A stretch of 64,000 nucleotides of DNA, taken from the IMG/VR virus record IMGVR_UViG_3300050119_000104, positions 1 to 64,000 of that record. One strand, given 5' to 3'. Both the position numbers and the translations under genes were made by a program. Positions 6,528 to 47,715 of the stretch are shown in pieces. Source of the DNA: a virus. Position 1 is the stretch's first letter; each line of letters begins with the position of its first letter. The notes under the pieces were generated by a model. That model was not told where the DNA came from. It was given only the letters and a program-made list of their open reading frames with translations, and did no database searches.

Positions 6528-6770
6528 CGTGCTTATCCGGTTGACACCCACAAAGGGTGACACGATCCGGTATTCCTCTACAGGACGCAGAGCACTCTGC
6601 GCGGCTCCCGAAGGAACCTTATTCATGACCCTTTTCAGCCTTTTGAACTGCCCCAATCGGGGTATTGGTCATGGAAACTCGATCTTACGTGTGCTTTCAA
6701 TCAGTCGAGAGCGATTGTCAAAACGAAGAAAAGCAAAATTTCAGGTAGCTGTCAAGCGTTGGGTGTCATC
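6528..6770 (-). mobile_element. Divergent copy of the IS1595-type MITE/omega-RNA-like cassette (copy A)
   Basis: TIR CGTGCTTATCCGGTTGACACCCAC at 6528; shares GCGCAGAGTGCTCTGCGTCCTGTAGAGG and the CTTGACAGC..AATTTTGCTTTTC block with the other copies; far TIR degenerate. Confidence 0.85.
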
Positions 6771-7800: not shown

Positions 7801-8171
7801 TTAGGCCGCCTTCTTAAGCTGACGACCGTAGTACGCCTTCTCGAATCCGGGGAACATATCCATGTTCGGGACGCGTATCTCATGTGCATGGCCAAGCACT
7901 GAGATTGCAAACGGCTTGGGAGGAACGACACCGAAGTACTGCCAATACCAAACAGCGTGCAGATGTGACAAGAAAATCTTGACCGCATAGCGTCCGGCCA
8001 TCTTGTCGAGGTACGCAGGCGGCACCTTACCTGCGGCAAGGAGCGCCTTGTTAGTCTTATCGGTGACACCCTTGTAGACCGCAGCCTTCTCAGCAAAGCC
8101 GCCGCGCTCGTTGCGCGCGACGTATATTTCTTTCTTTGCTCGATAGAGCTTCCCGTAGAAGCTATCGGGAT
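7801..8171 (-). pseudogene. C-terminal part of the Tas-like (Nop/IS110 C-terminal domain) protein, separated by the IS1595 insertion
   Basis: DPDSFYGKLY...AGRYAVKIFLSHLHAVW continues in frame with the N-terminal part once the IS and one ATCCCGAT copy are removed. Confidence 0.8.
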
Positions 8172-8211
8172 CATGCTTATCCGGTTTGAACATACATCCC
8201 CCAAAGGTTGA

Positions 8212-9255
8212 TTAGTCATGATGGGTTTCCATCGTCGGATGCTTCCAAGTTCCCTCGTAAATCCCGGCATAGGTCGGGCCTTCGCCGTTGGTCCCGATGC
8301 CGAGCAGCGAGCGGAAGGCGTTGAACGGGTAGAAGCGCCGGTTAAAGCGGAACGTGAACTCATTGAGGTAGGCTTGCAGATGTTGCGGCTCGACGCGCCC
8401 GTGGTGCGTGCCCTGCAACCACGCCTTGAGGTTCGAAAACACAAGGTGGACGATGGGCAGAAATTCCTCAGCGACTTCCGGGTTTCCGGCTTCGACAACC
8501 GGCAGATGGGCGTAGCCGCTCATGCCGAGCTTGTTATAGGCCGGTGCCGCGTCCGTGATGACTATCGCGCCCGGCTCGACGGCCTGTTCCACAAAGCCAA
8601 CCAGAGACTTAGCGGATCGGTCAGGAACGATTTCCAGCCGCAGGCGGCCAGCGTAGCGCCCGCCGCGTCGCATGGGCTTATCGCCCTTCTTAGCCGGACG
8701 GGTGCGAACCTCAACAGCGGCAGATACGATAGTTTTATCATCAGCATGCGGGCCACGCCCTTCACCGCGCAGCATACCGCCGATGTAGGTTTCATCAACT
8801 TCGACATGATCGCCGCGCGCCAGATTGCTACCTATCCGGTCGCGGCCTTGTCGGACCATGCCAGCGCGCAGCTTATGCAGGATTTGGAACGCGGTTTCGT
8901 ATCGGGTAAGGCCAAGCTGGCGCTGGAACTGCACGGCAGACATGCCGGGTGTCATGCTCGAAACGAGATAGGCCGCCCAAAACCATACCGTCAGCGGCGT
9001 GTGCGTGCGCTGCATCACGGTATCGACCGTCAGCGACGTTTGCTTGCGGCAGACGCGACACGTCAGGACGCTGGTACGGGTCGCCATGCGGAACGGCTCG
9101 CCTTTTTCCTCGCAATGCGGACATACGAAACCCTTGGGCCACTTCGCGCCCTCCAAGTATCTGGCGCAAGCGGCGTCATCCTTGAACAACCGCTGGAAAT
9201 CTCTGAGAGATTTGGGGAAAGGCAAGTGTTCCCATTGGAGAATGTCGGGGGCCAT
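8212..9255 (-). CDS. IS1595-family DDE transposase
   Basis: N-terminal Zn ribbon CPHC..CRVC; VEVDETYIGG, VITD, VHLVFSNLK (D-D-H-K pattern of the ISSod11 group), YLNEFTFRFNRR. Confidence 0.95.
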   Translation of the reverse strand: MAPDILQWEHLPFPKSLRDFQRLFKDDAACARYLEGAKWPKGFVCPHCEEKGEPFRMATRTSVLTCRVCRKQTSLTVDTVMQRTHTPLTVWFWAAYLVSSMTPGMSAVQFQRQLGLTRYETAFQILHKLRAGMVRQGRDRIGSNLARGDHVEVDETYIGGMLRGEGRGPHADDKTIVSAAVEVRTRPAKKGDKPMRRGGRYAGRLRLEIVPDRSAKSLVGFVEQAVEPGAIVITDAAPAYNKLGMSGYAHLPVVEAGNPEVAEEFLPIVHLVFSNLKAWLQGTHHGRVEPQHLQAYLNEFTFRFNRRFYPFNAFRSLLGIGTNGEGPTYAGIYEGTWKHPTMETHHD

Positions 9256-9262
9256 AGCTTGC

Positions 9263-9448
9263 TCAACCCCTTTCCGCTGCTGGGAAAATTCCGTGCGGCC
9301 CAGTTCCCTCGTCAGTGGGCTTGGGCTCTGGGCGCTTTGGGCCAGGGATTACTCGTCGGCCATCTTCCGAGTACGTCGCAAGACAGTAGGGGCAGGTCCG
9401 CACAATCCCGGCCCAAAACGAATGTGAGTGAGTGCAAAGCCGGGTCAT
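9263..9448 (-). CDS. IS cargo gene, small Cys/His-containing protein
   Basis: 61-aa ORF coupled by ATGA overlap to the upstream cargo gene. Confidence 0.45.
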   Translation of the reverse strand: MTRLCTHSHSFWAGIVRTCPYCLATYSEDGRRVIPGPKRPEPKPTDEGTGPHGIFPAAERG

Positions 9449-9819
9449 GCCCCGACCCCAAATTGGGCATTATCGACCTTTGCCGCGCGAACGGCGTCCG
9501 GGGTGCGCTGCGCGTGCCAGTTCTTATCGAAGTCTTCCATTGCGGCTTCTGGCGTCTCACCGAAACCGCAGACGCCGCTCATGATGTCGTCGCCATAGAG
9601 GGCGCACCATTGGCTCCCGTCCGCATAGACGGAAGGCCGAAACAGGACAGCCGGGCGCTGCATTTCCCATGTGACGGTCATGAACTGATCGCGGATCATT
9701 ACTTGGGAGTGCGAAATATCAAAGGCTTGGTGCGCCGCCTCGCGGACAACCTCGCCAATATTGCCGCCGCTGATCCGGCTGCGAACCGCGTCATAGATTG
9801 CTTGGTAATTGTCGCTCAT
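9445..9819 (-). CDS. IS cargo gene, phage-type hypothetical with HicB-like C-terminal motif
   Basis: WCALYGDDIMSGVCGFGETPEAAMEDF resembles the HicB N-terminal G-T-EEA motif. Confidence 0.55.
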   Translation of the reverse strand: MSDNYQAIYDAVRSRISGGNIGEVVREAAHQAFDISHSQVMIRDQFMTVTWEMQRPAVLFRPSVYADGSQWCALYGDDIMSGVCGFGETPEAAMEDFDKNWHAQRTPDAVRAAKVDNAQFGVGA

Positions 9820-10361
9820 GGCGCTACCCCAAATTCTGGCGTGCGAGGGTCAAGGTTGCGTTGCAGCGGGTCCATGCCGCCGAGTTTTTCGATAGCCGCA
9901 AGGCAAGCGCTAATCGCCTCGCAGTATCCCTTGGCGACAAGGTCTTGTTCCAGAAACGTGCCGCCGAGCGAGTTAATTTCATGCCACGCCTGATCAAGCG
10001 CCCAGTTAGCTTCCGCCTCGCTGTTGAGGCCGTTGCAAACGGCGGCTGCGATGGCAAGGTTTTCTTGCCTAGACAGTTCCCTAGCGCCAGTAGCCGCGAC
10101 ATCGACCCCGTCGCGGCTAACCCATCCCATTCCGTCATCGCCGCGCAATTCCCTAAAGCTGTATCCCTCTTTGTGGATCATGCGAGCCTCCCGATGCCGC
10201 GCGTGGCGATAAGGACGTTCGCCGCCGCGATGGGCGAGAAGCCCGACGCTAACAGGTGGGCTAGGCGTAATTGCTCTTCCGTGCGGAGGCGTGGCTGCTC
10301 GCCGCGCTTCGTGAGGGCGGTTTGTACTTTTACAAAGAAACTGTCGTTTTTCATGGGTCAT
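9816..10361 (-). CDS. IS cargo gene, hypothetical (true start may lie further downstream)
   Basis: 181-aa ORF overlapping the next cargo gene by ATGA. Confidence 0.5.
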   Translation of the reverse strand: MTHEKRQFLCKSTNRPHEARRAATPPHGRAITPSPPVSVGLLAHRGGERPYRHARHREARMIHKEGYSFRELRGDDGMGWVSRDGVDVAATGARELSRQENLAIAAAVCNGLNSEAEANWALDQAWHEINSLGGTFLEQDLVAKGYCEAISACLAAIEKLGGMDPLQRNLDPRTPEFGVAP

Positions 10362-10421
10362 CTCCTATCCAATGGCAGCAATCTATCAGAGGTATTTGTA
10401 TGTGTCAACCGGATAAGCATG

Positions 10422-10967
10422 ATCGGGATGATTGCTCGACCGTTTGAAACATTCCCGCGCGTGATGCGCGAGTTGTTTCATGTCGGCGCTGAATGGGCGC
10501 TTCTGGCCTTTTTCCCATTTCTGATCGGGGTTGAGACCAGAAAAGCTCCAAATATGTCCGACTGTCGGGCACTTCTCGATGTCGATGTGAGCAAGATAAC
10601 CGGCCGCGACCACCGGGCCAATGCCGATCTGCTCCATCATCCATCGACCAACAGAAGACACCTGAGCGTATTCGCCAAGAGCCTTGGCGATGTCCTTCTC
10701 AAGTCGGACCTGTTCGTCGATGTAGTGTTGAAGCAGGAAGGCAATTTGAGTCTTGCCTTCTACGGTCTCAGCATCATCACCGATTTCCGGCTGGATGTTT
10801 TCGACCGGCGTCTTATCGCCGATGTGGCGGGTCTGCATGTCGCCAGCTTTGCGCTTATCCTGCGCGTCGTGGTAGTTGAAAACCAGCGCCCGAACTTCAG
10901 GGGCTGTCATTTTGGTAGCAGTGAAAACTAGCTCAGACGAGAGCGGGGTTCGGGGAGTACGTTTCAT
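10422..10967 (-). pseudogene. N-terminal part of the Tas-like (TasA-type, Nop domain, no nuclease) protein
   Basis: Coiled-coil EVRALVFNYHDAQDKRK, GIGPVVAAG, HIWSFSGLNP, KRPFSADMK; no N-terminal DEDD RuvC; rejoined product about 302 aa. Confidence 0.8.
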
Positions 10968-12839: not shown

Positions 12840-13700
12840 GGTTTTCAATTTGGCTATCTCAGCACTCTCGGATCGTTCTCAGATTATCCGAGATGGGCAA
12901 AGCTTTATTTATCAATTACTTAGATCACTATCTCATCATTCTCATCAATTTGAGAGATAGATTGATAGAGTAGTACTATAGGTTGTAGTAGGTACATGTA
13001 ATACACTGCGTAGGAAATGACTTGGCGAGATGCTGAGTATGCTGAGAGCGAGCCCAAAAGGGGGCTTAAGTCATTGATAACACTGATAAACACTCATCTC
13101 AGATAGTGGTAAATCATCCGAGAGGTATCCGAGAATGGATGCGCCTTACGCGATATGGCTGACTCCCGGCGTCGGCTCGACCGGATCATTGAAGAATTCC
13201 TCTTTCTCGGGCCGCGTTAACCTTAACGCTTAACCTTGCTCGCGTACGAAGTCTGCCCACCAAAAAATCCCCTGTATTATCAAGTACTTAGCTCACCCGT
13301 CTGCCCACGATCCTTTCTTTTTTACATTAACAGTGCCCCTTTAGGCCCACTATATAGTGTATATTTAAGGTTAATATGCCCACTGAGGCTAAAAGTTAAG
13401 GTTAACCGCGTCGGTTGGGTGGCTGTTAACCTTTATTAACGAGCGGTCAGTCGTATTTAACCTTAATTCTATACTATAGTTGCGCCGCTCGGTCGCATTA
13501 ACCTTAATTCTATACTATGGTTGCGCCTTGAGGACTCGAAGTTTTCTTTTTTACCCAGCCGCATTAACCATGGTGGGCAAATTAACCCTCTCGAAGGTTG
13601 GTGCTTGACAAGTCCCGGAGGGTGGCTCAGCTACGGGGAAGGTCTACTAAATTGATCGACTATGTGCAAAACGTATGAGGGGTACAATCTGTGCTTCGTG
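12840..13700. other. AT-rich non-coding divergent region with iterated motifs (origin or control region)
   Basis: Repeated TCTCAG/ATCCGAGA motifs (12856-13140), about a dozen TTAACC/GGTTAA motifs (13217-13590), 30-bp direct repeat at 13457-13486 and 13498-13527; gene orientation switches here. Confidence 0.65.
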
Positions 13701-13768
13701 CGATTTTCTCAAAAAGAATAAATAAAAAAGAATAAATAAAAAAGAACCATCAATTTTCTCAAAGCGAA

Positions 13769-14021
13769 CATGCTTATCCGGTTGATGCCCAATGCTTGAC
13801 AGCCACCTGGAATTTTGCTTTTCTCCATTCCGACAATCGCCTCCGATTGATTGGGGGTATCTAAAGACCATGTTTCCGTCGTCTGTTCGCGCCGAAAGGT
13901 AATCCGAGAGGTAGAACGGCGATGAATAAGGTCCATTTCGGTGGACCGCGCAGAGTGCTCTGCGTCCTGTAGAGGAGAGCCGGGTTCGTGTCGCCCATTG
14001 GGCGTCAACCGGATAAGCACG
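13769..14021 (+). mobile_element. IS1595-type MITE/omega-RNA-like cassette (copy C, 253 bp)
   Basis: TIRs CATGCTTATCCGGTTGA(T)GCCCAATG / CATTGGGCGTCAACCGGATAAGCACG; no direct TSD. Confidence 0.92.
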
Positions 14022-14051
14022 CGCTTTGTCATTCGGAAACCGGTTCACACA

Positions 14052-14594
14052 ATGACCAACATCATGCTCGATATCGAAACGCTCGGACTGGACTCGACTG
14101 CCGTCGTCCTCAGCATCGGCGTGACCAAATTCACACTGAATGAAGCGGCACCACTGATCGGCGACTCAATGTTGTGGACGCCAAACTTGGCGGAGCAATT
14201 CGCCAAAGGCCGCAACGTCAACCACTCCACGCTCGACTTCTGGCGCAAGCAACCAGACGCAGCCAAAGCGAGTTGGCTCTATCCGTCGAAACCCGAACCC
14301 GTTCATACGGCACTCACCGAATTGAGCCAGTTCATTAGTAGCGACTACGAAGTCATGATGTGGGCCAACGGGATCACGTTCGACTTCGGCATCATGGCGT
14401 CGCTCTATCATGACTTTGAAATCCAGGTGCCGTGGAAGTACAACGCAGTCCGCGACGCACGAACCATCTATCGCGTGCTGCCAAAGATACGAACGCGGCC
14501 GGAAGGATCGGAGCAAGGCCCTGAACATGATCCGGTCGCCGATTGCATCTTCCAAATTTGGAATCTGTGGGAGCATTGGCCATTCGGCAATTGA
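14052..14594 (+). CDS. DEDDh 3'-5' exonuclease (phage exonuclease VIII/RNase T-like)
   Basis: IMLDIETLG, WANGITFD, RDART, HDPVAD motifs. Confidence 0.85.
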   Translation: MTNIMLDIETLGLDSTAVVLSIGVTKFTLNEAAPLIGDSMLWTPNLAEQFAKGRNVNHSTLDFWRKQPDAAKASWLYPSKPEPVHTALTELSQFISSDYEVMMWANGITFDFGIMASLYHDFEIQVPWKYNAVRDARTIYRVLPKIRTRPEGSEQGPEHDPVADCIFQIWNLWEHWPFGN

Positions 14595-14636
14595 CATCCG
14601 CACACTGTCGTGCCAATTTTCAGAAATGCACTGGAG

Positions 14637-14871
14637 CATGCTTATCCGGTTGACGCCCAATGCTTGACAGCCACCTGGAATTTTGCTTTTCTCCGTTCCG
14701 ACAATCGCCTCCGATTGATTGGAGGTAGCTAATGTTTCCGTCGTCCGTTCGCGCCGAAAGGTAGAACGGCGATGAATAAGGTCCATTTCGGTGGATCGCG
14801 CAGAGTGCTCTGCGTCCTGTAGAGGAGAGCCGGGTTCGTGTCGCCCATTGGGCGTCAACCGGATAAGCACG
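14637..14871 (+). mobile_element. IS1595-type MITE (copy D, 235 bp)
   Basis: Both TIRs; 8-bp TSD CACTGGAG. Confidence 0.95.
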
Positions 14872-15219
14872 CACTGGAGTAAGCGCAGGGCGGCTAACTG
14901 GTGCCGTCATTGTGATCTTGAAAGCATGAAAGAACAACGCAGTTGTTGATGACGGACTTAAACACGCAGATGGCGATTTCTTTGCCGAAGTCGGCATCTA
15001 TGAGAATTCCTGAAACTGGCAGTGGAGTCGCCGTGATAGCGAAGCTGATCACGCTGTGGCGGGCGATGAAGCGCCCAATCCCAACATGACCGTGACCAAC
15101 GAAGAGTTAGAAGTCGCCTGCCGTGCCACGTATGGACCAATGGACCGGATGCCCGGTGAGAAGCGGCAGTACGCTCGAAAGTTCTTAGAAGCCGTCGATG
15201 CGTATCGAGCGCGGCCCAC

Positions 15220-15453
15220 ATGACCGCGACCATTCTAAAATTTCCGACTCCCGCCACTGTGACCCTTCGCGACGAGCGCTCGGTCCAAGCGTGGATCGAT
15301 GAGCTAGTGTCTGACCATCCCGAGCTTGGGGGTATGGAGCTTGAGGAAATTTTTGTGAAGTACATCTGCGAAGGAATACCAAACCCTATTCAATCAAGCC
15401 TTGGCGCGCGCATACTTTTCAGATCGAAAGTTCGCTACGTTCCACCCCGTTAG
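15220..15453 (+). CDS. Hypothetical protein
   Basis: 77-aa ORF. Confidence 0.4.
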   Translation: MTATILKFPTPATVTLRDERSVQAWIDELVSDHPELGGMELEEIFVKYICEGIPNPIQSSLGARILFRSKVRYVPPR

Positions 15454-15471
15454 CTCAGTGATAGAAGGCTT

Positions 15472-15706
15472 CATGCTTATCCGGTTGACGCCCAATGCTT
15501 GACAGCCACCTGGAATTTTGCTTTTCTCCGTTCCGACAATCGCCTCCGATTGATTGGAGGTAGCTAATGTTTCCGTCGTCCGTTCGCGCCGAAAGGTAGA
15601 ACGGCGATGAATAAGGTCCATTTCGGTGGATCGCGCAGAGTGCTCTGCGTCCTGTAGAGGAGAGCCGGGTTCGTGTCGCCCATTGGGCGTCAACCGGATA
15701 AGCACG
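15472..15706 (+). mobile_element. IS1595-type MITE (copy E, 235 bp) inserted at the tip of the TnpB element's left TIR
   Basis: Both TIRs; 8-bp TSD GAAGGCTT. Confidence 0.95.
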
Positions 15707-15707
15707 G

Positions 15708-16846
15708 AAGGCTTATCCGGTTGATACCCACAGGCGCTAAATCCAGATGATCTTGACCTACAAATATCGCATCAAGAACCGGAACGCCAAGTCGGCTTTG
15801 CGCCGCCACGCCTTTGCGGTCAATCAGGTGTGGAATTACTGCTGTGCGCAACAGCGCGATATCGAGTCGCGTTATCGGGCCGGAGCGCCGAAGCGCAAAT
15901 GGGCGTCACACTATGACTTGCAACGCCTCTGCAAAGGCGCGGGAGCGATGTTTGGCATTCACCAACAGACCATCGGCGGCGTGTGCCGAACTTTCGCGCA
16001 AGCCCGCGACAAGGCTCGGCACGCCCCGGCGTTCCGCAAGAGCTACGGCGTGAAACGGTCCTTGGGTTGGATACCGTTTGAGGGCCAAAGCCGCCAGATC
16101 AAAGACGGCGTTGTAACCTATCTCGGCAAACGCTTCTACCTTTGGGGCCTCAAGCGGCGGCCTATTCCCGCTACGGTCAAGGGCGGCGCGTTCGTAGAGG
16201 ATGCCTTGGGGCGTTGGTATGTGTGCCTCACGGTTGAGGTCGAACGCACCCCCGCAACCGGCAACAAGGCCATCGGCATCGATTTAGGACTGAAAAGCCT
16301 CGCCACGCTCAGTGATGGCCGCAAGATCGAGGCACCACAAATCTATCGCCGATATGAACAACAGCTTGCCGCGCTACAGCGCGCAGGAAAGCGGCGTCAT
16401 GCGAAGCGGTTGCACGCGAAGATCAAAGCGTGCAGGGCTGATTTTCTACATAAGATTTCGACGGAGCTTGCTGGTCAGAACGCGATCATCGCAGTGGGCA
16501 ATGTCAATGCACGCGCCTTGGCGTCCAAGTCAGTCCTTGATGCCGGGTGGTCCTCATTCCGAAAGATGCTCGCCTACAAGGCGACCGACTATCGGGAGGT
16601 GGACGAAAGGTTCACGACCCAAGATTGTTCGGCGTGCGGTGCACGCGGTGGCCCAAAAGGTCAAAAAGGTCTTGGAATAAGGCAATGGCAATGTTCATCC
16701 TGTGGCGAAAGCCATGACCGCGATGTGAACGCGGCTTTGAACATTCTCGCCATTGCCCGGCGCAGTGCTGCGCCGCCTGTTGAGGAATACCGGAGAGCGG
16801 CATGACACAGGATTTAGTGCCCGTGGGTGTCAACCGGATAAGCACG
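15708..16846 (+). mobile_element. Non-autonomous IS1595-TIR element carrying tnpB
   Basis: Left GCTTATCCGGTTGATACCCACAGGCGCTAAATC versus reverse complement of right end GCTTATCCGGTTGACACCCACGGGCACTAAATC (30/33 identical); no IS605 end hairpins. Confidence 0.85.
15747..16805 (+). CDS. tnpB: TnpB RNA-guided nuclease with rearranged RuvC-II
   Basis: GIDLGLK, AVGNV, VDERFTTQDCSAC, CSSCGESHDRDVNAALNI. Confidence 0.95.
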   Translation: MILTYKYRIKNRNAKSALRRHAFAVNQVWNYCCAQQRDIESRYRAGAPKRKWASHYDLQRLCKGAGAMFGIHQQTIGGVCRTFAQARDKARHAPAFRKSYGVKRSLGWIPFEGQSRQIKDGVVTYLGKRFYLWGLKRRPIPATVKGGAFVEDALGRWYVCLTVEVERTPATGNKAIGIDLGLKSLATLSDGRKIEAPQIYRRYEQQLAALQRAGKRRHAKRLHAKIKACRADFLHKISTELAGQNAIIAVGNVNARALASKSVLDAGWSSFRKMLAYKATDYREVDERFTTQDCSACGARGGPKGQKGLGIRQWQCSSCGESHDRDVNAALNILAIARRSAAPPVEEYRRAA

Positions 16847-16934
16847 CCAAGGGCTAGATCATGCCTACGCAATGTGGACTGTACGTGTCCCATTATGGGA
16901 CAGTCGAGGCGGCGGCCTTCATATAGGGTCAAAA

Positions 16935-17111
16935 ATGAAACCGAAAAAATACTACCGCATGTTCGCAGCGAAGCGCGACGGCGTACTCAATTGCGGCTTC
17001 ATTTCGTTCACTGCGGCCAACGTGCGCTACCGAGTCGGTCTGCTTTATGAGGGCTGGCAGCGAGCAAAGAAAAAAGGTTGGCGCGTCGTGCGAGTTTGGA
17101 TTAGTGAATGA
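16935..17111 (+). CDS. Hypothetical protein
   Basis: Short basic ORF. Confidence 0.4.
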   Translation: MKPKKYYRMFAAKRDGVLNCGFISFTAANVRYRVGLLYEGWQRAKKKGWRVVRVWISE

Positions 17112-17359
17112 AGTGCCCCCACTGTGGCAACGCCATCAAAGCATCGACGGAGGAAATAATTCAGTCGGTGATCGACGCGTTCGCCATCGGCGCGGTCGTT
17201 CTTGATTTTGGGGACAGAGGTTTTGTAACGTACCCACGCAATCCGCAAGACACGATCACGTTGGACCGAGAGTGACCATGAGCCTTGAACAGTGGGCCGG
17301 AGAATATGTCAATTTCGATGAGCTTGGCATCCAGGATCGAAAGAGCGGAAGATACTCAC

Positions 17360-17539
17360 ATGAGTTTTCATTGCCCCAACTGTGATAGCCCGACCGTCGT
17401 GCGCGAGACTCGTGGAGAAGTTCGCATGCGCCGATGCAAAGGCTGCAATAAAGTTTTCCGCACGGAAGAGACCGAACTGGAAGAACCACGAGCACCAAAC
17501 AAACCCGGCAAGCCAAAAAAGAAAGTAACACGACGATGA
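17360..17539 (+). CDS. Small Zn-ribbon protein (Ogr/Delta or NrdR N-terminus-like)
   Basis: CPNC...RMRRCKGCNKVFRTEE. Confidence 0.6.
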   Translation: MSFHCPNCDSPTVVRETRGEVRMRRCKGCNKVFRTEETELEEPRAPNKPGKPKKKVTRR

Positions 17540-18025
17540 AACACCCAATAGCCCTCATCATGCTCGGGATAGTCTGATGACCTGGGGTAGCAATCCATCT
17601 TACGATATCGTTCCATGCCCTTGGTGCGGCAATGACATGGTGGACAACACGGACGAATGGCCAACCACTCACATGATGCAATGCCCCCAACGCGGTAATA
17701 AAGCCGTGAGGCCTTCCGTGCTCGTACTCTTGATCTGCGGTTATGCCGCCATGGCTCTGCTCTTTGCGAGTGTGTTAGGACTTATCTAATAGCCGCCCTT
17801 GACACCGAGACTTTTTTAGATCAAAAAGAAAATGGCAGGCACGAGTGTGAGGACCAGAGCAGTGCAGGTTGAAGAGCAGTGCGGTTCAAAACAGTCGGGC
17901 CTGTTGGAATTTCAGTCACGGTTCAACATGATCGTAAACGTCGCACGTAACATTCCTCAGGCCAGGGCATTGGCCGTTGAGCCTCCCAAGCGAACGCTAA
18001 GGCTCAGCTTTTCGCGGTTGATCAC

Positions 18026-18253
18026 ATGACACGCGGAAGGCGCACCAATGACGCACGGATCGGGGCGATGCTCGCGGCCGAAAAAATCTACGGCAGCGCA
18101 GGATGCGCAATTTGCGGCGGTGTCGAGAGGTACGCGTCGAGTGGAGCGTGCGTTGCTTGCTCTAAATGGCAGGCGCGTCAGCGCTACGTTGTCAACCGAG
18201 TGGAGATCGCTAAGGCTGATGCTGCCCGTTACCAAGCGAGGAAGTTGAAATGA
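18026..18253 (+). CDS. Small Cys-motif protein
   Basis: CAICGGVERYASSGACVAC, similar module to the 12360..12833 product. Confidence 0.5.
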   Translation: MTRGRRTNDARIGAMLAAEKIYGSAGCAICGGVERYASSGACVACSKWQARQRYVVNRVEIAKADAARYQARKLK

Positions 18254-18451
18254 TTTGGGTACTCATGATCATGGACAACGACGGGGCTGACGGGGATTGC
18301 CGACGCATTGTCTCTGTTCACAAAACAGAAGAGGGTGCGGCCGCAGCAGAAAAATTTATCGCGCATCAGCACTCTTGGATCGATGGCCCTTACGTATTGA
18401 TGGATTGAGGAATGGAACAGGAGATGGTGCGAGATAGCTTGCGTGCGACTC

Positions 18452-18707
18452 CAATCTTATCCGCCGGTTGACGCCCAATGCTTGACAGCCACCTGGAATT
18501 TTGCTTTTCTCCGTTCCGACAATCGCCTCCGATTGATTGGGGGTAGCTAAAGACCATGTTTCCGTCGTCCGTTCGCGCCGAAAGGTAATCCGAGAGGTAG
18601 AACGGCGATGAATAAGGTCCATTTCGGTGGACCGCGCAGAGTGCTCTGCGTCCTGTAGAGGAGAGCCGGGTTCGTGTCGCCCATTGGGCGTCAACCGGAT
18701 AAGCACG
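18452..18707 (+). mobile_element. IS1595-type MITE (copy G), left TIR degenerate
   Basis: CAATCTTATCCGCCGGTTGACGCCC (3-nt insertion); right TIR intact; no TSD. Confidence 0.9.
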
Positions 18708-18726
18708 ACTGCGCCCGTGAGGTTGG

Positions 18727-18966
18727 ATGATGCCTGACGACAGAGTGTGTGAGGACGGCGAGTTTTGCATCTGTATAAGAAATGATTGGGATCGCGAGAC
18801 GTGTGAGCTTTTCCATTTCCCAAGTCCCAAAACGCTGCGCTCCGGCCGCTCGACTATGCTCACCGAATTGCGCGACCAGGGGCACGACCGCATCCGCAAA
18901 GAGAATGCCGAGACCCGCGACCGCCGCGCTGCGCTCCGCGCTACGCTGCCTAGGAAACATCGATGA
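18727..18966 (+). CDS. Hypothetical protein between two MITEs
   Basis: 79-aa ORF with GAGG RBS. Confidence 0.4.
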   Translation: MMPDDRVCEDGEFCICIRNDWDRETCELFHFPSPKTLRSGRSTMLTELRDQGHDRIRKENAETRDRRAALRATLPRKHR

Positions 18967-18973
18967 CAGAATA

Positions 18974-19208
18974 GCCCAATGCTTGACAGCCACCTGGAAT
19001 TTTGCTTTTCTCCGTTCCGACAATCGCCTCCGATTGATTGGGGGTAACTAAAGACCATGTTTCCGTCGTCCGTTCGCGCCGAAAGGTAATCCGAGAGGTA
19101 GAACGGCGATGAATAAGGTCCATTTCGGTGGATCGCGCAGAGTGCTCTGCGTCCTGTAGAGGAGAGCCGGGTTCGTGTCGCCCATTGGGCGTCAACCGGA
19201 TAAGCACG
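18974..19208 (+). mobile_element. IS1595-type MITE (copy H), left TIR deleted
   Basis: Begins at GCCCAATGCTTGACAG; right TIR intact. Confidence 0.9.
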
Positions 19209-19237
19209 CATCTGTCATCTGAAAGGGAAGAACCCCC

Positions 19238-19641
19238 ATGCTCATTGAATGGTGGAGGGGCGGCAAGCCACAAGGTCAGTGGTTGTCGGTTCAAGACATG
19301 ATTGCGGATATCGGACCGGGGAAGTTCGAGCTATTGCCCGGCGACAAAATACTTTTCCTAGAGTCATACACATTCGCCAAATTCCGCGCTGAGGTAAATG
19401 CCGCGCGGACGCCGAAGCCCACGCTGCGGCTAGTAACCAAAGAAAGACAGGAACCTTGACAGGGATGATAGAGCCGTTCTACCTGATCCCCATGAACGAC
19501 ACCATACTCGATCTGCCAGCCTTCCTGCCAAGCCGTCGCGCCGCCGGGACTCGCGTCATGCTACGTTCGAACAACAAGCGATATCGAGGCGGCCCGGCCA
19601 TCATCGTTCGAGCCGAAGGTACTGCGCATGACTCAAGATAA
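19238..19641 (+). CDS. Two coupled small hypothetical ORFs (19238..19459, 19456..19641) ending at an orphan TIR
   Basis: Overlapping stop/start; followed by a TIR of the type at the TnpB element end. Confidence 0.4.
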
Positions 19642-19672
19642 AGGGCCTGTGGGTGTCAACCGGATAAGTACG
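19626..19672 (+). mobile_element. Orphan right end of an IS1595-TIR element
   Basis: GCATGACTCAAGATAAAGGGCCTGTGGGTGTCAACCGGATAAGTACG closely resembles 16800-16846. Confidence 0.75.
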
Positions 19673-19860
19673 AGCGAGCAAACATACCGCGTCTCAGGTG
19701 GCTCAGATGTGTTCTACGTCGTGACTGGCGAAGGCAAACGAGAAATCACCGTCACGAAATGGACCCGTAGCCGAGCGAAAGCGGAAGATTGGTGCGTCAC
19801 GCTAAATCGCACCGCGCAAATCGAAAGTGATCGCAAACGGCAGACCAAAGGATAAGGTCG

Positions 19861-20058
19861 ATGGTAGATTATAAGCGCAGACTTGAACGAAATGCTAAGT
19901 ATGAACGCGAGGAAGCAGAGCAGCGGCGCGAGGAAGCACGCGAGGAAGCACGCAAAGAAGCGCTCTCGATGTGGGAACGTATCGAGGAAGCTGACGCGAG
20001 CGCTGATGTGAAAGATATTCTGCATCGCATTGCATGTCAGACTGGATTGGAAACATGA
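19861..20058 (+). CDS. Hypothetical protein
   Basis: 65-aa ORF with AAGG RBS. Confidence 0.45.
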   Translation: MVDYKRRLERNAKYEREEAEQRREEAREEARKEALSMWERIEEADASADVKDILHRIACQTGLET

Positions 20059-26073: not shown

Positions 26074-26329
26074 CGTGCTTATCCGGTTGACGCCCAATGG
26101 GCGACACGAACCCGGCTCTCCTCTACAGGACGCAGAGCACTCTGCGCGATCCACCGAAATGGACCTTATTCATCGCCGTTCTACCTCTCGGATTACCTTT
26201 CGGCGCGAACGGACGACGGAAACATCATGGTCTTTAGCTACCCCCAATCAATCGGAGGCGATTGTCGGAACGGAGAAAAGCAAAATTCCAGGTGGCTGTC
26301 AAGCATTGGGCGTCAACCGGATAAGCATG
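26074..26329 (-). mobile_element. IS1595-type MITE (copy J, 256 bp, inverted relative to local genes)
   Basis: Both TIRs; no TSD; its CATG end could supply the ATG (26327) of the ORF running to 26530. Confidence 0.92.
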
Positions 26330-28411: not shown

Positions 28412-30542
28412 ATGACCGATCTAACAATCCCCGACGATCTCTCGATCCCGAAATTCCTGGACTTGAAAATTCCAGCGAACCACACGGCTTGGAAAGAGGG
28501 TCACAAAATTTGGACGCCCCGGAAGGTCAAGGCCGAAGCCAAGGCAAAGATCAATCGTGATAGTGAAGGCCGCTCGTTGCCGAAGAACATGGATGAAACT
28601 TCCTGGGCATTCTTGCGCGCCCAAGAAAAGGAAACCAAAGCTGAGGTTGAAGCGGATAAAGCTGAGCGCTTCCGATTTTTGGAAGCTTTGCGCCAAGAAA
28701 AGGCTCGGGTCAAGGCAGCGGCGAAGGCGGTTAAGCATGCCATATGATGGCGCTGGACAATACCGATATTGAAAGGCTAGGAAGAGACCATGACGATGAA
28801 ATGTGTTCAGATTGTCGGGGCAACATGTCCTGATCCGAGTCAGTGACGGGGACGCACATGAGCAGTAACCTTATAGACTGCGATCTCTATCCTTGGTGCG
28901 ATAGCCAGGGTTGCGTAGGTCATCCTGAGACTTGCCACCGCGCAGCAGATTTGCGTGCCGGTATTGACAAGCGTAATCCATTCTCAAAGGGGTCACGCAC
29001 TTTCGGACACCTAGGTACCAAGCAGGAATTGCTTCGGCGCTTGCAGGAGCTACAGCGGGGATATCAGGAAGCAGCCGCGCCAATCATCCAACAACTCGCG
29101 GATATCGTGGCGCTCGAACCGCCACCGCCGACTATTCCGCGCGATCAGATATCGCCGGAAATTCTGAAAATTATAAAAAGGCAAGAAAATGACCAAACTT
29201 GAAAAGGCCCTCTATCACACACGAGTCGCGCTCACGATTGCATTTGCTCTCGGACTCGTTGCAATCCCTTGTGCACAAGCCGAGGTGCTCGCGCTGCCGC
29301 AAACCGACAACGGTTACAGCTACTGCCAGGGCGGTCTCTGTGTGTGGGGTTCGGGCGCGCTGCCGACTCCCGGCGTGCATCAAGTGCCCCAGCCCTCGTC
29401 CGAAGATCGAGAAGCTGCCGCGAAACACGAGCATGAGTGGGCGGAGCGGTGCAAGCCGACAATCGGCTATGACGCCTATGGTGTCGCGCGCTACACTTAT
29501 GCCAAAACCGGTTGCGAATTCGGTAATGGCCGATGAAGTTTTATCTCGCGCTCGTGTCACTTCGGTTCAATCAATTCGCGTGGCGGCTGTGGATGTTAAG
29601 CGAACGATGGAACCAAGAATGCATCGACCGATGGCTGTTCAATAATAGATAGGTTCATGCTTATCCGGTTGACGCCCAATGCTTGACAGCCACCTGGAAT
29701 TTTGCTTTTCTCCGTTCCGACAATCGCCTCCGATTGATTGGGGGTATCTAAAGACCATGTTTCCGTCGTCTGTTCGCGCCGAAAGGTAGAACGGCGATGA
29801 ATAAGGTCCATTTCGGTGGATCGCGCAGAGTGCTCTGCGTCCTGTAGAGGGAGAGCCGGGTTCGTGTCGTCCATTGGGCGTCAACCGGATAAGCACGGGT
29901 TATAATCCGGCCCAAAGTTTATAATACCGGATTGCGGTTCGCGAGCGTTCGTGCGAAAGTCTCGGTCGAAACACAGGAGGCAATCACATGGCGACTGTTC
30001 GAAAACTTTTGAAGCGCGTGAAAAAGACGATCAGACAAGCGCAAATGGCAACGGCCGATGCGAGATTTGCTACGCAGGAAATTCACGATCTCATCGATGC
30101 GATGAATGCTACGCCCCCTCTTACAGACCCGGAGTCGGAAAGCCCGGCGACTCCGGCGGAAGATGAGACACAAAGCCCGGCGGCGTATTCGGGCGGCTGC
30201 TGAGAGAGTGGTTTACGAAGATACGCTCGATAATCCGTTCTCGACGTAACTGCAAAAAAGGAAGTCCCCAAAATGAGCAACACATCTGGAAGATGCTTTC
30301 GAGCTTTCCGCCGAACAAAGAAACGGCTGAATAGTCAGGGCCGTCCTTGGGCGCGACCGATCAGAACCAAAATCCCGCTCTCCCTCCGAATGTTCATGCT
30401 CCCTGGTCATGGACAAGCGAGTCAGAAATCAGTCACGCGTGACGTGCTGGCTGGTATCGTTCAGCGATATACGGCGGCGTGGATGGCTTACGTCAAGAAA
30501 ATGCAGGCTGAGAAAGCTGCCGCTGCGAAAGCCGCCAACTAA
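28412..30542 (+). CDS. Small hypothetical ORFs (28412..28747, 28858..29202, 29189..29536 exported, 29988..30203, 30273..30542)
   Basis: GGAG/AGGA RBS before most starts. Confidence 0.5.
29656..29897 (+). mobile_element. IS1595-type MITE (copy K, 242 bp)
   Basis: Both TIRs; no TSD; same variant as copy L. Confidence 0.92.
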
Positions 30543-30912: not shown

Positions 30913-33046
30913 ATGGCAAAAGATGCACGCGGACACGGTAGCGAAGGCGGTCGCGGCGGCGTAAGTCGGCCGGTCGGATCAGGTTTGCAATTCGGCGTTG
31001 CGTCAAAATTCAAATCAAAGGGCGGCGCGGGCATGAAGTCGGATCGAGATCACACCTCCGATGCGGCGCGCACCGTTTCCGATCTGCGCTCGCGCATGGC
31101 GACCACTGGCGCAGGCCACAAAACCGGACTCATGCAGGGTATCAAGAATTTTCTCGGAGGCAGGTGATGGCAAAGGATGCAAAAGGTCACGGTTCGGAAG
31201 GTCGCAGTGGCGGTCAAAAGCAAAGCTGGGATGCGAAGCGCGGAAGCTATGCCAAAGGATTTGCAGGGCCTACGCCGGATGGCGGTCATGGAGTATCTGG
31301 TTCACAGATAAAGCAATTCATGGCTGCTAGGCAAGCCGCAGTTACCGCCCCGGATTTAGGTGCCCCATCTGATCCGGCCGCGCATCAAACTGGCGTAGAA
31401 GCCGCGCGCAACACGCCGCGCGAGTCGCTTCGCGGTAGCATCAACAGCAATCCAATCGATGCCTCGGGTGAAGGCGGCGAAGGCCAGCCTACCGCACGCA
31501 ATCCGCACGGCATTCATATAGGCTACACGAAGGCGTGATTAGACAAGGCGCGCAAATGCGCCTAATCTTTTTTCTAACAACGAAAGCGAAAACACCTCCA
31601 CAACAAAGCGGCATCGGAGTAAAGTCATGGCGAAGGACAAAGGCGGACACGGTTCAGAAAGTCGCGGCGGCAGCGCACTCACCGCGTCTGTCTCTCGCGG
31701 TACTCCGATTGCAGGTATTCCAGCGTCCGGTGGCCAGCCGGTCGCATCCAACGAGCACGCGGCGGCAACGCTCGCGAGCGGCCCGAAGTCGGCACCGGTC
31801 GCGACGCACGACATGATGGGGCGCTCTCAGGAGTCGATTGAAGGCGGCGAAGGCCAGCCTACCGCACGCAATCCGCACGGCATTCATATGGGCTACACGA
31901 AGGCGTGATTAGACAAGGCGCGCAAATGCGCCTTCCAGCGTCGAGGCCGTGCGTGATATGCCGCGCGCCGCGCTAGCTTGGCGGGATCGTCAAAACAGTA
32001 TCCAACAAAGCATGCTTATCCGGTTGACGCCCAATGCTTGACAGCCACCTGGAATTTTGCTTTTCTCCGTTCCGACAATCGCCTCCGATTGATTGGGGGT
32101 ATCTAAAGACCATGTTTCCGTCGTCTGTTCGCGCCGAAAGGTAGAACGGCGATGAATAAGGTCCATTTCGGTGGATCGCGCAGAGTGCTCTGCGTCCTGT
32201 AGAGGGAGAGCCGGGTTCGTGTCGTCCATTGGGCGTCAACCGGATAAGCACGCAACAAAGGACGCTAGGGAAAGCTGCGTCGTCCCGAGAGGTTCGCAGC
32301 AAAGCCGATCTCACTGGACGCGCGAGCTATTGGGGGCAATTGAAGGACGCAGGCGGTCACGGTAGCGAAGCACACGCGGCGCATCAGGCGGGCACGCTCG
32401 ACGCGCTTCCTCGGATAATTCGGAATGCCGACGACGATACCTTGCTTGACATATCCCGCTGGGAGCGGCAAACATTGCAGGGTGCTATGTTAGCGCATGG
32501 TAAAACTCAGTGGGACGAGAACCAGGACAGTGGGAGCCTGGACCCGAACCGCCCAGCAAAGGCAGCGAGCAAATGAGCAAAGATGCAAAAGGTCACGGCA
32601 GCAACGCACGCGGCGCACATTCTAGTGGAGTCGATCAGGTCGGCAAGCCTGCGCCCCAGGTCAACGACGCGGCGATGAAAGTCATCAGTAGCACGAAGCC
32701 CGGCGAAGGCTTCTCTATCACACCGGGCGGCAGTCAACCGACAGACGGTCACATGGTTGCCCTGCCAAGCCGTACACAGGATGTCGATCCCGCTGCGTTA
32801 TCCGGGCCCGGCGGTCGTGCCATCATTGACGCGTTCACCGCGAAGAACGCGGACGTTTTCAGTGGCAACCCGAATATGCATGTCGGTGGCTGGCTCGATC
32901 CCGACACGCACAAGCTTTCACTCGATCCGTCCGAGAATATCAAGGATCGCAAGACAGCGATTGCCTCTGGCATAGCGCGCAATCAAAAAGAGATTTGGGA
33001 TGTGAAGAATAAGACCGGGATAAAGACAGGTGGCAGTGGTACATGA
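30913..33046 (+). CDS. Five short Gly-rich paralogs beginning (M)xKDxxGHGS (30913..31167, 31167..31538, 31627..31908, 32340..32576, 32573..33046)
   Basis: Shared N-terminal motif visible in the translations. Confidence 0.75.
31469..31933 (+). repeat. 95-bp direct repeat (31469-31563 and 31839-31933)
   Basis: One mismatch; duplicates the C-terminus GGEGQPTARNPHGIHxGYTKA and the downstream sequence. Confidence 0.9.
32011..32252 (+). mobile_element. IS1595-type MITE (copy L, 242 bp)
   Basis: Both TIRs; 8-bp TSD CAACAAAG. Confidence 0.95.
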
Positions 33047-42872: not shown

Positions 42873-42929
42873 TACGGAGGGCCGCATGACCCAAGATAAA
42901 GGGGCTGTGTATCCCGGAAAGTAAGTCAC

Positions 42930-46185: not shown

Positions 46186-46198
46186 CGTCTTCCCCGGT

Positions 46199-47275
46199 CT
46201 AAAGGCCAGGGATTTCCACTACCGGAGGCGGACGTTCCCGCCCGACACGGAGAATGTTTAGCGCTGCGTTCACATCCCGATCGTGAGAAGTGCCGCAGTC
46301 TGAACAAACCCAATGTCTTATTTCAAGCGCGCCCATACCTTTCGGACTGCTGTCGGGAATACACCCGCAGCACGAGCACGTCTGAGAAGTCCATCGCTCG
46401 TCGGCTTCTACATACCGAGCCCCGTGCCTGCTGGCTTTGTAGCGGAGCTGATTGCGGAACGTCGTCCATCCTGCATCGAGTACGGATTTAGCCATCCGCG
46501 TCTTTACAAGTTTGGCGGCGCTCACATTGCCGACAACGATAAGCCGATTTTGGCGAACTATCGAAGTAGTCGCCTTGTGGTGTTGATCCTTTCGGACGTT
46601 CGCAATCTTTGCGTGGATGGCTTTGACGCGACACTTGTTGCCGGCGCGCTGTTGAACGGCGAGCGCGACCTCGTACTTGCGATAGTGCTGAAGCGCCGGA
46701 ACAGTGTTGCCATTGCTGCACGTCGCCAGCGTCCTCAATCCAAGGTCGATCCCTATCTCTCCGTTGCCGGTCGGCAGGTCATCGGTAACCTCACACTGGA
46801 AACAGACATACCAGCGCCCGCGAGCGTCCTGAGTAAAGCAGCCGGCCTTGATGTCGTCGGGAATATCCCGCGATTTCCAGAAGTGGAATTTCCGTTTGAG
46901 GTAGACGACATGTGCGCCTTCGAGACGTACAGCGCGCTTGATAAATGGCAGCCAACCGAGTGCGCGCTTCGACCCACCGCTGGCGCGAAAGCGCGGGGCG
47001 TGGCGGGCGGCGTTGCGCGAGATTACAAACTGCTTGCAAATCTGACTGACCGTATCGGAGTGCAGCCCAAGTTCCGCAGCACATCCAGTAGTCAGCTTGA
47101 CAAGATCGAAGTGCGACGGCCAACGACGCTTAGGCGCGCCGTCCCTGTAATTGGACATCGCCCTGCGCTGTATCTCGCAACAGTAATTCCACACGAAGTT
47201 GCACGCCCGCGAGTGCCGCCCGAGGTACTTACCGACCATTGCGTCTTTGATGCGGAACTTATATGTAAGGATCAT
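46199..47275 (-). CDS. tnpB: TnpB RNA-guided nuclease with rearranged RuvC-II
   Basis: GIDLGLR, VVGNV, ADERWTSQTCSCC, CSDCGTSHDRDVNAALNI; clearly similar to the 15747..16805 TnpB. Confidence 0.95.
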   Translation of the reverse strand: MILTYKFRIKDAMVGKYLGRHSRACNFVWNYCCEIQRRAMSNYRDGAPKRRWPSHFDLVKLTTGCAAELGLHSDTVSQICKQFVISRNAARHAPRFRASGGSKRALGWLPFIKRAVRLEGAHVVYLKRKFHFWKSRDIPDDIKAGCFTQDARGRWYVCFQCEVTDDLPTGNGEIGIDLGLRTLATCSNGNTVPALQHYRKYEVALAVQQRAGNKCRVKAIHAKIANVRKDQHHKATTSIVRQNRLIVVGNVSAAKLVKTRMAKSVLDAGWTTFRNQLRYKASRHGARYVEADERWTSQTCSCCGCIPDSSPKGMGALEIRHWVCSDCGTSHDRDVNAALNILRVGRERPPPVVEIPGL

Positions 47276-47304
47276 ACGCAGGAAGTATTGGTCGGTGGTC
47301 AAAA

Positions 47305-47715
47305 ATGCAAGGCTTCAGGCGCGAACGACATAGCGTTTCCCGGCTCACGGTCCACTTGGTCTGCGTCACGAAATACCGACGCAAAATCCTCGATGGCCGG
47401 GCGCTTGACTGGCTCAAGGCGCACTTTGCCAAGGTTTGCCAGACAATGGATTGTGTACTTCTCGCCTGCGACGGTGAGAACGACCATGTCCATTTGCTGG
47501 TCGAGTACCCACCGAAACACTCGATCTCTGTCTTGGTTAATGCCATCAAGGGTACGTCCAGCCGGCTACTGCGCGCCGAAAGGCCAGACGTCGCCAAGCG
47601 CTACTGGAAGGGTGTTCTGTGGTCCCCGGCCTATTTTGCCGCCTCGACCGGCGGAGCCACGCTTGAAACGGTTAAGCGGTACGTCGAACAGCAGCGCGCC
47701 TCCTCCTCGCCCTGA
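47305..47715 (+). CDS. tnpA: IS200-like Y1 HUH transposase
   Basis: HLVCVTKYRR, DHVHLL (HUH), LWSPAYF, KRYVEQQ (catalytic Tyr). Confidence 0.95.
   Translation: MQGFRRERHSVSRLTVHLVCVTKYRRKILDGRALDWLKAHFAKVCQTMDCVLLACDGENDHVHLLVEYPPKHSISVLVNAIKGTSSRLLRAERPDVAKRYWKGVLWSPAYFAASTGGATLETVKRYVEQQRASSSP

Follow-up and report, generated by a model that had tools for sequence, protein, structure and literature searches.

Transposons of the DDE type that carry the guide-RNA nuclease TnpB have been described in both prokaryotes and eukaryotes. Altae-Tran et al. (2023, PMC10691335) distinguished six DDE-associated TnpB branches (DDE-1 to DDE-6) with inverted terminal repeats, together with solo TnpBs lying in the same ends and inferred to be mobilised in trans, and a 2026 review names the DDE families of TnpB as ISL2, IS630 and IS1031 (PMC13565253). 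In eukaryotes, Fanzor1 is carried in DDE transposons with terminal inverted repeats (TIRs), Merlin not being among the listed carriers (Bao and Jurka 2013, PMC3627910). Other relevant precedents are the RIIr-5 TnpBs, in which glycine occupies the position of the RuvC-II glutamate and the next strand is predicted to supply a replacement glutamate (PMC10691335), stand-alone mobile omega-RNAs (Altae-Tran 2021, as cited in PMC10691335), and the description of TnpB as a gene drive in multicopy plasmids (bioRxiv 10.1101/2025.02.20.638934). IS1595 is unnamed in the main texts of PMC10691335 and PMC13565253, and full-text literature searches for TnpB with IS1595 or ISSod11 returned nothing relevant. 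Here we describe a tnpB gene enclosed by IS1595-family TIRs in the first 64 kb (the window) of IMG/VR record IMGVR_UViG_3300050119_000104, a 117,459-bp contig of a tailed phage from peat.

We refer to the complete TIR-tnpB-TIR unit at 15708-16846 as E1, to further copies in the contig as E2 and E3, and to loci elsewhere by L-numbers. Our joint reading, to which we assign a probability of about 0.7, is that E1 is a non-autonomous IS1595-family TIR element with TnpB as its sole cargo, belonging to a lineage (clade T, defined below) that swapped IS605 ends for IS1595 ends, whose omega-RNA would end at the transposon tip and whose units would be mobilised in trans and play a drive-like role. The contig is 100% complete according to CheckV, encodes a tailed-phage gene set (portal, large terminase, major head protein, tail fibres and primase), and has near-identical sequence in many peat metagenome runs.

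TnpB within IS1595-family ends

The open reading frame (ORF) of E1 (Table 1) encodes a TnpB protein, with profile matches to NF040570 (2.3e-59) and to Pfam PF01385 (OrfB_IS605) and PF07282 (Cas12f1-like TNB domain), and a match to the ISDra2 TnpB structure at 4e-24. The inverted repeats that enclose it are 34 nt long and complementary at 31 of 34 positions (91%); the ORF begins 36 nt in from the outer end of the left repeat and terminates 38 nt short of the outer end of its right counterpart, and the distance from the stop codon to the transposon tip, 41 nt, lies inside the 250 bp used to recognise DDE-associated TnpBs with TIRs. An earlier note on this DNA, made from the letters alone, had placed a TnpB gene between IS1595 TIRs, about 40 nt inside each, and had pointed to an IS1595 transposase at 8212-9255; all three observations are borne out. 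The window contains 20 occurrences of the terminal 14-mer GCTTATCCGGTTGA, where 0.5 would be expected. Elements of the contig carry an additional 3-nt terminal tip, C-R-T, which is included in the coordinates of E1; so delimited, the unit coincides exactly with the interval given in the earlier note.

The 14-20-nt tips of E1 are identical to those of the transposase-bearing IS1595-family element at 8172-10421, of further transposase-bearing copies in viral contigs (L020, with a target-site duplication (TSD), and L025), and of 1162-bp IS1595-family insertion sequences (ISs). The latter were recovered in a 20-nt end scan of species genomes, mainly from alphaproteobacterial metagenome-assembled genomes (MAGs), and have a 65%-identical transposase between the same tips and perfect 8-bp TSDs in 14 of 14 copies; the viral contigs also hold many miniature inverted-repeat transposable elements (MITEs). 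Counted over all loci, perfect 8-bp TSDs flank 43 distinct TIR elements, and their target preference is symmetric, T-N-[8]-N-A, as expected for a DDE enzyme. The end CATGCTTATC fits nnnGCnTATC, which we take to be the ISfinder consensus of the ISSod11 group, and IS1595 is itself a bacterial relative of Merlin. No clade-T member was seen with a transposase inside the same TIR pair. The passenger ORFs of the element in the window (9260-10361), for example one of 181 aa at 9816-10361 (-), have no Pfam, NCBIfam or PHROG match. The 8-mer forming its TSD, ATCGGGAT, also lies 1 nt from the right tip of E2, a different locus (contig 93218-93225), a recurrence that could reflect chance or a preferred target.

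Homologues number in the thousands; both ends were scored in the loci of 104 relatives, and 85 proteins were arranged in a quick maximum-likelihood tree. Where TnpB is at least about 54% identical to that of E1, the unit ends ...CCGGATAAGCACG 13-77 nt from the stop codon in nearly all loci with readable 3' sequence. TnpBs at most 52% identical, including that at 46199-47302, mostly have an IS605-type right-end (RE) hairpin ending GGGGAAGACGT, and many have an adjoining divergent Y1 tnpA; no Y1 tnpA hit was found in clade-T loci. Clade T (39 rows) is monophyletic (Shimodaira-Hasegawa-like approximate likelihood-ratio test, SH-aLRT, 96) and sister to the Y1/hairpin clade (98), which suggests that the ends were switched once, from an IS605-type ancestor; units with both TIRs and units with the right end only are interspersed within it. 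Among PLSDB plasmids and INPHARED phages, the best match to E1 TnpB is 45% identical, so no clade-T member is found in these cultured records. A distant fifth TnpB homologue, 30-35% identical, lies beyond the window at contig 85046-85837 (-).

The window also holds a canonical IS605-type IS (Table 1), whose RE hairpin aligns to a 20-nt gap in E1 and E2. The earlier note had described the IS605 hairpin as absent from E1, which is correct for the RE hairpin itself, although the loss is not complete: a homologous stem persists in the predicted omega-RNA and is closed there by the TIR CCGG. E1 has 34-nt TIRs instead of subterminal left-end (LE) and RE hairpins, and the only Y1 element in the contig has ends unlike those of E1. 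Mobilisation of E1 by a Y1 TnpA was considered and rejected, given that LE and RE hairpins are lacking.

In alignment with ISDra2 TnpB, D179 and D326 correspond to D191 and D361, and G251 stands opposite E278 within the invariant motif VGNV. E1 TnpB therefore lacks the canonical D-E-D RuvC triad, and the earlier statement that all three catalytic acids are present fails at the RuvC-II position. The glutamate E287 is invariant across the TnpB alignment, is located where the substitute glutamate of RIIr-5 TnpBs is predicted, and is likely to take the place of the missing RuvC-II residue. The zinc-finger C4 cysteines are also invariant and intact in E1, and the RuvC-III motif reads DRDxN. The ratio of nonsynonymous to synonymous substitution rates (dN/dS) is 0.085 between E1 and L092 and 0.094 between E2 and L013; TnpB is therefore under purifying selection, and the conserved residues suggest that the E1 protein is probably catalytically active.

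Comparison of copies delimits the unit. E2 (93227-94362, -) and E3 (116344 to the contig end, -) share 1113 bp at 100% identity, and their flanks differ directly after ...AAGCACG. The match between L013 and E2 (94.7%) covers exactly the 1136 bp that begin with CAT and finish with ACG, L092 is 93% identical to E1 over 1137 bp, beginning at 15711, where GCTT opens the left TIR, and ending with the right tip at 16846, and L015 matches L036 at 98% over 1136 bp, each pair with unrelated flanks. On these alignments, units move as exact CAT...ACG blocks. The search for TSD-flanked TIR-tnpB-TIR homologues that the earlier note had proposed was likewise productive, recovering five full-length units: four have exact 8-bp TSDs (L105 TCTGATAT, L111 GAACGGAG, L186 GTCCCATC and L187 GAGCAAAG) and the fifth, L106, has an 8-bp TSD, TTCATTTC, offset by a 5-nt tip slip. 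A sixth locus, L048, is a 372-bp internal-deletion derivative of an E1-type unit with the exact 8-bp TSD GAAGGTTG.

Several further features of E1 and its surroundings were recorded. The inner right end (16810-16829) is remodelled to mirror the left end of the same unit, giving the 34-nt TIR, whereas in the 93%-identical L092 (3560-3580) the inner right end still resembles that of E2 and the TIR measures only about 22 nt. Three independent E1-type units (window 16855-16862, L092:3611-3618 and L185) have TAGATCAT in their right flanks, 9-17 nt past the tip, L185 having the variant AAATCAT. An ORF at window 16802-17050 begins at an ATGA overlapping the tnpB stop codon and continues through the right TIR into the flank, an arrangement also seen in E2; coupled translation from this overlap may limit polar effects of insertion in a phage operon. 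A scan of 13500-20000 against Rfam gave no family match, and a tRNA scan of the window found none, so that the tRNA-like look of the E1 left flank is meaningless.

A predicted omega-RNA reaching the repeat tip

The last 100 nt of 22 clade-T units and three MITEs were aligned, and a covariance model was built from the alignment. Both support a predicted omega-RNA 3' domain that spans the end of tnpB and reaches the transposon boundary (Table 1). In E1 the domain is predicted to contain a hairpin, P1 (16758-16775), with a conserved GUGC loop (16765-16768), a 3-bp hairpin, P2 (16776-16785), and a stem, P3, in which CCGG at 16790-16793 pairs with the TIR CCGG at 16834-16837 and encloses a variable hairpin. 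Across the alignment 99.1% of cells are paired, with compensatory changes in 11 of 18 pairs; none of 500 shuffles reaches the observed pairing values, and in slid controls pairing falls to 24-38%. P1 is closed by G.U in 22 of 24 sequences, indicating a sense-strand RNA and not a DNA hairpin. The GUGC loop is furthermore complementary to GCAC in the tip (16842-16845), and in L116 both sides are changed jointly, to GCGU and ACGC; we regard this pseudoknot as tentative because its support is a single doubly compensated sequence. The pairing patterns thus argue that the TIR tip forms part of the omega-RNA 3' domain, and such a structure accounts for the invariable CACG of right tips, where left tips have CATG. 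With the boundary between scaffold and guide at the transposon end, the guide would begin with the TSD, in E1 at 16847. The model also matches the RE of the IS605-type locus at 46 kb weakly, at 33.6 bits, as expected under common ancestry.

The contig contains about 12 MITEs of about 240 bp, and 8 of the 8 complete ones are polar (CATG...CACG). They share a 38-nt block that is 84% identical to the 3' end of E2 tnpB, with compensatory changes in the stem, and in the contig the covariance model scores 72-94 bits on three TnpB units and on 12 MITE copies (15 omega-RNA modules). By this measure the MITEs carry the predicted omega-RNA 3' domain without tnpB. In a MAG with at least 10 copies of the plain 1162-bp IS the same model found no match; the IS family thus occurs on its own as well, which makes the TnpB/omega-RNA module the part that was captured. 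One MITE, at 15472-15706, has inserted in the tip of E1, where its TSD GAAGGCTT overlaps the first 4 nt of the E1 TIR, placing this insertion later than E1.

When the guide-like right flanks of all tips were searched in the contig, no second target was found. Two side observations concern the right ends. At window 42866-42905, between the portal gene and a 921-aa gene, about 30 nt (GGAGGGCCGCATGACCCAAGATAAAG...) are near-identical to the inside of the E2 right end, comprising the tnpB stop region, a Shine-Dalgarno-like GGAGG and an ATG; this stretch is either what remains of a right end or a translation-start block common to the two places, and not the target of a guide. In L093, past the end of a clade-T tnpB (86% identical to E1, without a left TIR), positions 1921-2030 hold four right-end tips, two copies of GGATGAGCACG and two of CAACCGGATAAGCACG, with unique stretches of 8, 13 and 16 nt between them, resembling a miniature repeat-spacer array of scaffold ends and guides.

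Table 1. Features of E1, its IS1595-family partner, the MITEs and the IS605-type comparator in the window.
Feature	Coordinates	Strand	Remarks
E1, complete TIR-tnpB-TIR unit with 3-nt tips	15708..16846	+	left tip AAG (non-canonical), right tip ACG
E1 left TIR	15711..15744	+	first 14 nt identical to IS1595 and MITE tips
tnpB, 352 aa	15747..16805	+	D179, G251 (canonical RuvC-II position), invariant E287, D326, zinc finger C294/C297/C316/C319
Predicted omega-RNA 3' domain	16728..16846	+	alignment and pair counts; covariance model 84.9 bits
E1 right TIR	16810..16843	+	doubles as 3' end of the predicted omega-RNA scaffold
IS1595-family element with passenger ORFs, 2250 bp	8172..10421	-	perfect 8-bp TSD ATCGGGAT at 8164-8171 and 10422-10429
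IS1595 transposase, intact	8212..9255	-	NF033547 3.3e-56; zinc ribbon and DDE domain
MITE inserted in E1 tip, polar, predicted omega-RNA domain, no tnpB	15472..15706	+	TSD GAAGGCTT at 15464-15471 and 15707-15714
Variant MITE	6528..6766	-	far end truncated
MITE	13769..14021	+	no TSD
MITE	14637..14871	+	TSD CACTGGAG
MITE	18464..18707	+	degenerate left end
MITE	18974..19208	+	degenerate left end
Solo right-end remnant of E2-like TnpB unit	19625..19672	+	
MITE	26074..26329	-	no TSD
MITE	29656..29897	+	no TSD
MITE	32011..32252	+	TSD CAACAAAG
Comparator, canonical IS605-type IS	46186..47709	-	RE hairpin ending ...GGGGAAGACGT; covariance model weak, 33.6 bits
Comparator tnpB	46199-47302	-	51% identical to E1 TnpB
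Comparator Y1 tnpA, divergent	47305-47709	+	adjoins comparator tnpB

Proposed mechanism, missing target duplications and rival explanations

We propose that clade T descends from Y1/IS605-associated TnpBs of the RuvC-II-rearranged type that would have exchanged their IS605 ends for IS1595 ends, with a predicted omega-RNA scaffold lying mostly inside the 3' end of tnpB, stopping exactly at the transposon tip and using the TIR CCGG to close a stem. The guide would be the DNA directly outside the right end, starting with the 8-bp target duplication. An IS1595 transposase acting in trans, here that encoded at 8212-9255, may move both the TnpB units and the ~240-bp omega-RNA MITEs, and TnpB would then cut unoccupied alleles in co-replicating phage genomes by means of flank-derived guides from units and MITEs, so biasing the inheritance of the insertions in the manner of a gene drive or of restorative homing. 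A gene drive is, in our analysis, the most plausible role of a TnpB in a replicating phage. As a possible extension, which we put forward tentatively, these parts could constitute a three-part phage system: the transposase would scatter TnpB genes and omega-RNA MITEs, each insertion would make a guide from its right flank, the DDE transposase would thereby serve as the guide-acquisition step of an array-free library, TnpB would draw on these guides in trans to drive the insertions through populations of replicating phages, and the tip array in L093 might represent a first step towards CRISPR-like arrays.

Several observations weigh against the proposal that E1 and its relatives are trans-mobilised IS1595-family elements. 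E1 itself lacks a TSD (GATAGAAG versus ACGCCAAG), and AAG stands at its left tip in place of CAT. TSDs are missing from 12 of 17 full-length contexts (E1, L092, L185, E2, L013, L015/L018, L036, L097/L088, L104, L107, L030 and L049), and about half of clade T is without any left TIR. The MAGs with L049 and L048 have only distant IS1595-family transposases (30-46% identical), and empty sites were not recovered, either in a flank-gap-flank search of viral contigs for E2 and L015 or in peat-run contigs for E1. A promoter and terminator scan of 15300-17000 found no promoter-like site in or before E1, and the variable 8-bp TSD leaves no obvious fixed position for a target-adjacent motif. The suggestion in the earlier note that a DDE TIR transposon captured a TnpB stands for the lineage, by its shared tips, TSD-flanked units and exact boundaries, and is qualified for the E1 copy, with its AAG tip and no TSD, as well as for the majority of units, which have none. 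This E1 copy is probably immobile now while still encoding a TnpB under selection.

TSDs are scarcer around TnpB units than around their siblings. At an interim stage they were present at 0 of 6 units and 8 of 11 other elements (Fisher p ~0.007), and in the final tally 5 of 17 full-length units have a TSD while sibling IS and MITE copies mostly have one. Flanks may have been shuffled, through wrong-end pairing or short-homology recombination in phage genomes rich in TIRs, or TnpB may affect the junctions. Searches around TSD-less units for longer or offset flank duplications found none above shuffled controls, except for paralogous repeats around L037; a search with the flanks of L015 in the records of other units matched the unit alone; and the flanks of sister copies showed no guide-like similarity. 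Assembly chimeras were ruled out as an explanation of the missing TSDs for E1 (unique sequence, junctions in several runs) and for L088 (four independent assemblies), a rejection that does not extend to E2. In L037, a right-end-only clade-T tnpB lies between two repeats of ~55 nt (2915-2970 and 4125-4180), ~70% alike, which are probably tandem paralogous genes. TIR tips also attract insertions: the right tip of L030 (L030:3765-3790) is followed by a second partial tip, GATAAGCACG, and in L105 (3620-3634) the TSD is followed by CATGCT, resembling a left tip.

The missing TSDs lend themselves to a different account, in which the right-end TIR is kept mainly as an omega-RNA scaffold and most clade-T units spread or persist by a TSD-less route (recombination by a phage recombinase at short TIR homologies, wrong-end transposase pairing that rearranges flanks, or repair of TnpB-triggered breaks), with IS1595 transposition only occasional. 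It would accommodate the absence of TSDs from 12 of 17 contexts, which include three lineages in several contexts each (E1, E2 and L015 types), the L088 junction seen in four independent assemblies, the interspersion of right-end-only members across the tree, and the damage to or replacement of left ends (AAG in E1, GCGCATCC in L049) where recognisable right ends are nearly all ...GCACG. We nonetheless consider it unlikely. TSD-less lineages have exact boundaries at both tips, which break repair would not be expected to leave, and no flank homology or duplication; the unrelated right flanks of E2, E3 and L013 imply that spread was not guide-directed; and the TSDs of the four full-length units are perfect, as is that of L106 after its 5-nt tip slip. 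Less probable still is that E1 has been immobilised and is retained by the phage for the activity of its TnpB, for instance as a nuclease using MITE and unit guides against competing phage or host alleles, an explanation compatible with trans-mobilisation of the lineage as a whole. In favour of this are its non-canonical left tip and lack of a TSD. Logan contigs from four peat runs, compared with 14900-17900, recover the same E1 junctions and none that skips E1, though these contigs are short and carry little weight. Strong purifying selection and fifteen predicted omega-RNA modules in one 117-kb genome would also suit retention for nuclease activity; guide-like flank matches elsewhere in the contig are lacking, close relatives of E1 are clearly mobile, and there is no tie to a host function.

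We find it very improbable that E1 is merely a nested insertion, in which an IS605/IS1341-type tnpB element landed in an IS1595 MITE whose TIRs never mobilised tnpB. The ingredients for such an event are at hand, since the contig is rich in MITEs that bear these tips, a Y1 TnpA is encoded at 47305-47709, and TIR tips do serve as insertion targets (the MITE in the E1 tip, the duplicated tip of L030). Yet the gaps between the ORF and the tips are just 36 and 38 nt, with no IS605 LE or RE in them, the TSD predicted for a host MITE is not present at E1, and the association is clade-wide, the tip covarying as a part of the omega-RNA across the clade. The exact co-mobility of whole CAT...ACG blocks largely refutes this explanation. 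Mobilisation of clade-T units as IS1595-family elements remains our preferred reading.

Comparison with known systems

Together these results would extend the partners of TnpB to the IS1595 (Merlin-like) DDE family, in a bacteriophage, and provide a concrete, testable RNA design in which a scaffold fused to the TIR tip is accompanied by matching omega-RNA MITEs. They bear on the purpose of a guide-RNA nuclease in a transposon whose own activity already breaks both DNA strands and duplicates the target, and on the expansion of guide repertoires in the time before CRISPR arrays. The TnpBs of the lineage are moreover compact (~350 aa), combining a rearranged active site with a well-defined scaffold-guide boundary, and the deficit of TSDs around TnpB units, compared with their near-universal presence on sibling ISs and MITEs, may mean that TnpB influences the junctions of the transposon.

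With respect to protein and RNA, clade T resembles the IS200/IS605 elements (IS1341 group, ISDra2 OMEGA) in its protein family, in a predicted omega-RNA across the 3' end of tnpB and in a guide that would derive from the flank, and its sister clade is Y1-associated with an RE hairpin. It differs from them in lacking subterminal LE/RE hairpins and a Y1 tnpA hit, and in having true TIRs and, in several members, 8-bp TSDs, neither of which IS605 makes. Like the RIIr-5 TnpBs (PMC10691335), E1 TnpB has a glycine in VGNV, an alternative invariant glutamate (E287) in or after the next strand and a RuvC-III motif DRDxN, an assignment made by motif. The MITEs recall the stand-alone mobile omega-RNAs, as these are cited in PMC10691335, in being protein-less mobile copies of a predicted scaffold alongside the effector in one genome, and differ from them in being TIR/TSD MITEs of a DDE family instead of IS605-type derivatives.

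The closest counterparts are the DDE-associated TnpBs (PMC10691335), with which clade T shares a TnpB in symmetric DDE TIRs, a tnpB 3' end no more than 250 bp from the transposon end and the occurrence of solo TnpBs that would be mobilised in trans; it is set apart by the IS1595 family, by a scaffold predicted to end in the TIR tip, by MITEs carrying only the omega-RNA and by the absence of TSDs from most units. Fanzor1 (PMC3627910) is likewise a TnpB-family nuclease carried as cargo of DDE TIR/TSD transposons, often non-autonomous, whereas E1 is prokaryotic and phage-borne and encodes a compact protein. The parallel with Fanzor capture drawn in the earlier note is thus apt in that TnpB is cargo of a DDE TIR element, and is not new in principle, DDE-associated and solo TnpBs in TIRs having been reported (PMC10691335). 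While this general idea is published, the IS1595 partner, the scaffold fused to the tip, the swarm of omega-RNA MITEs in a phage and the deficit of TSDs seem to be new.

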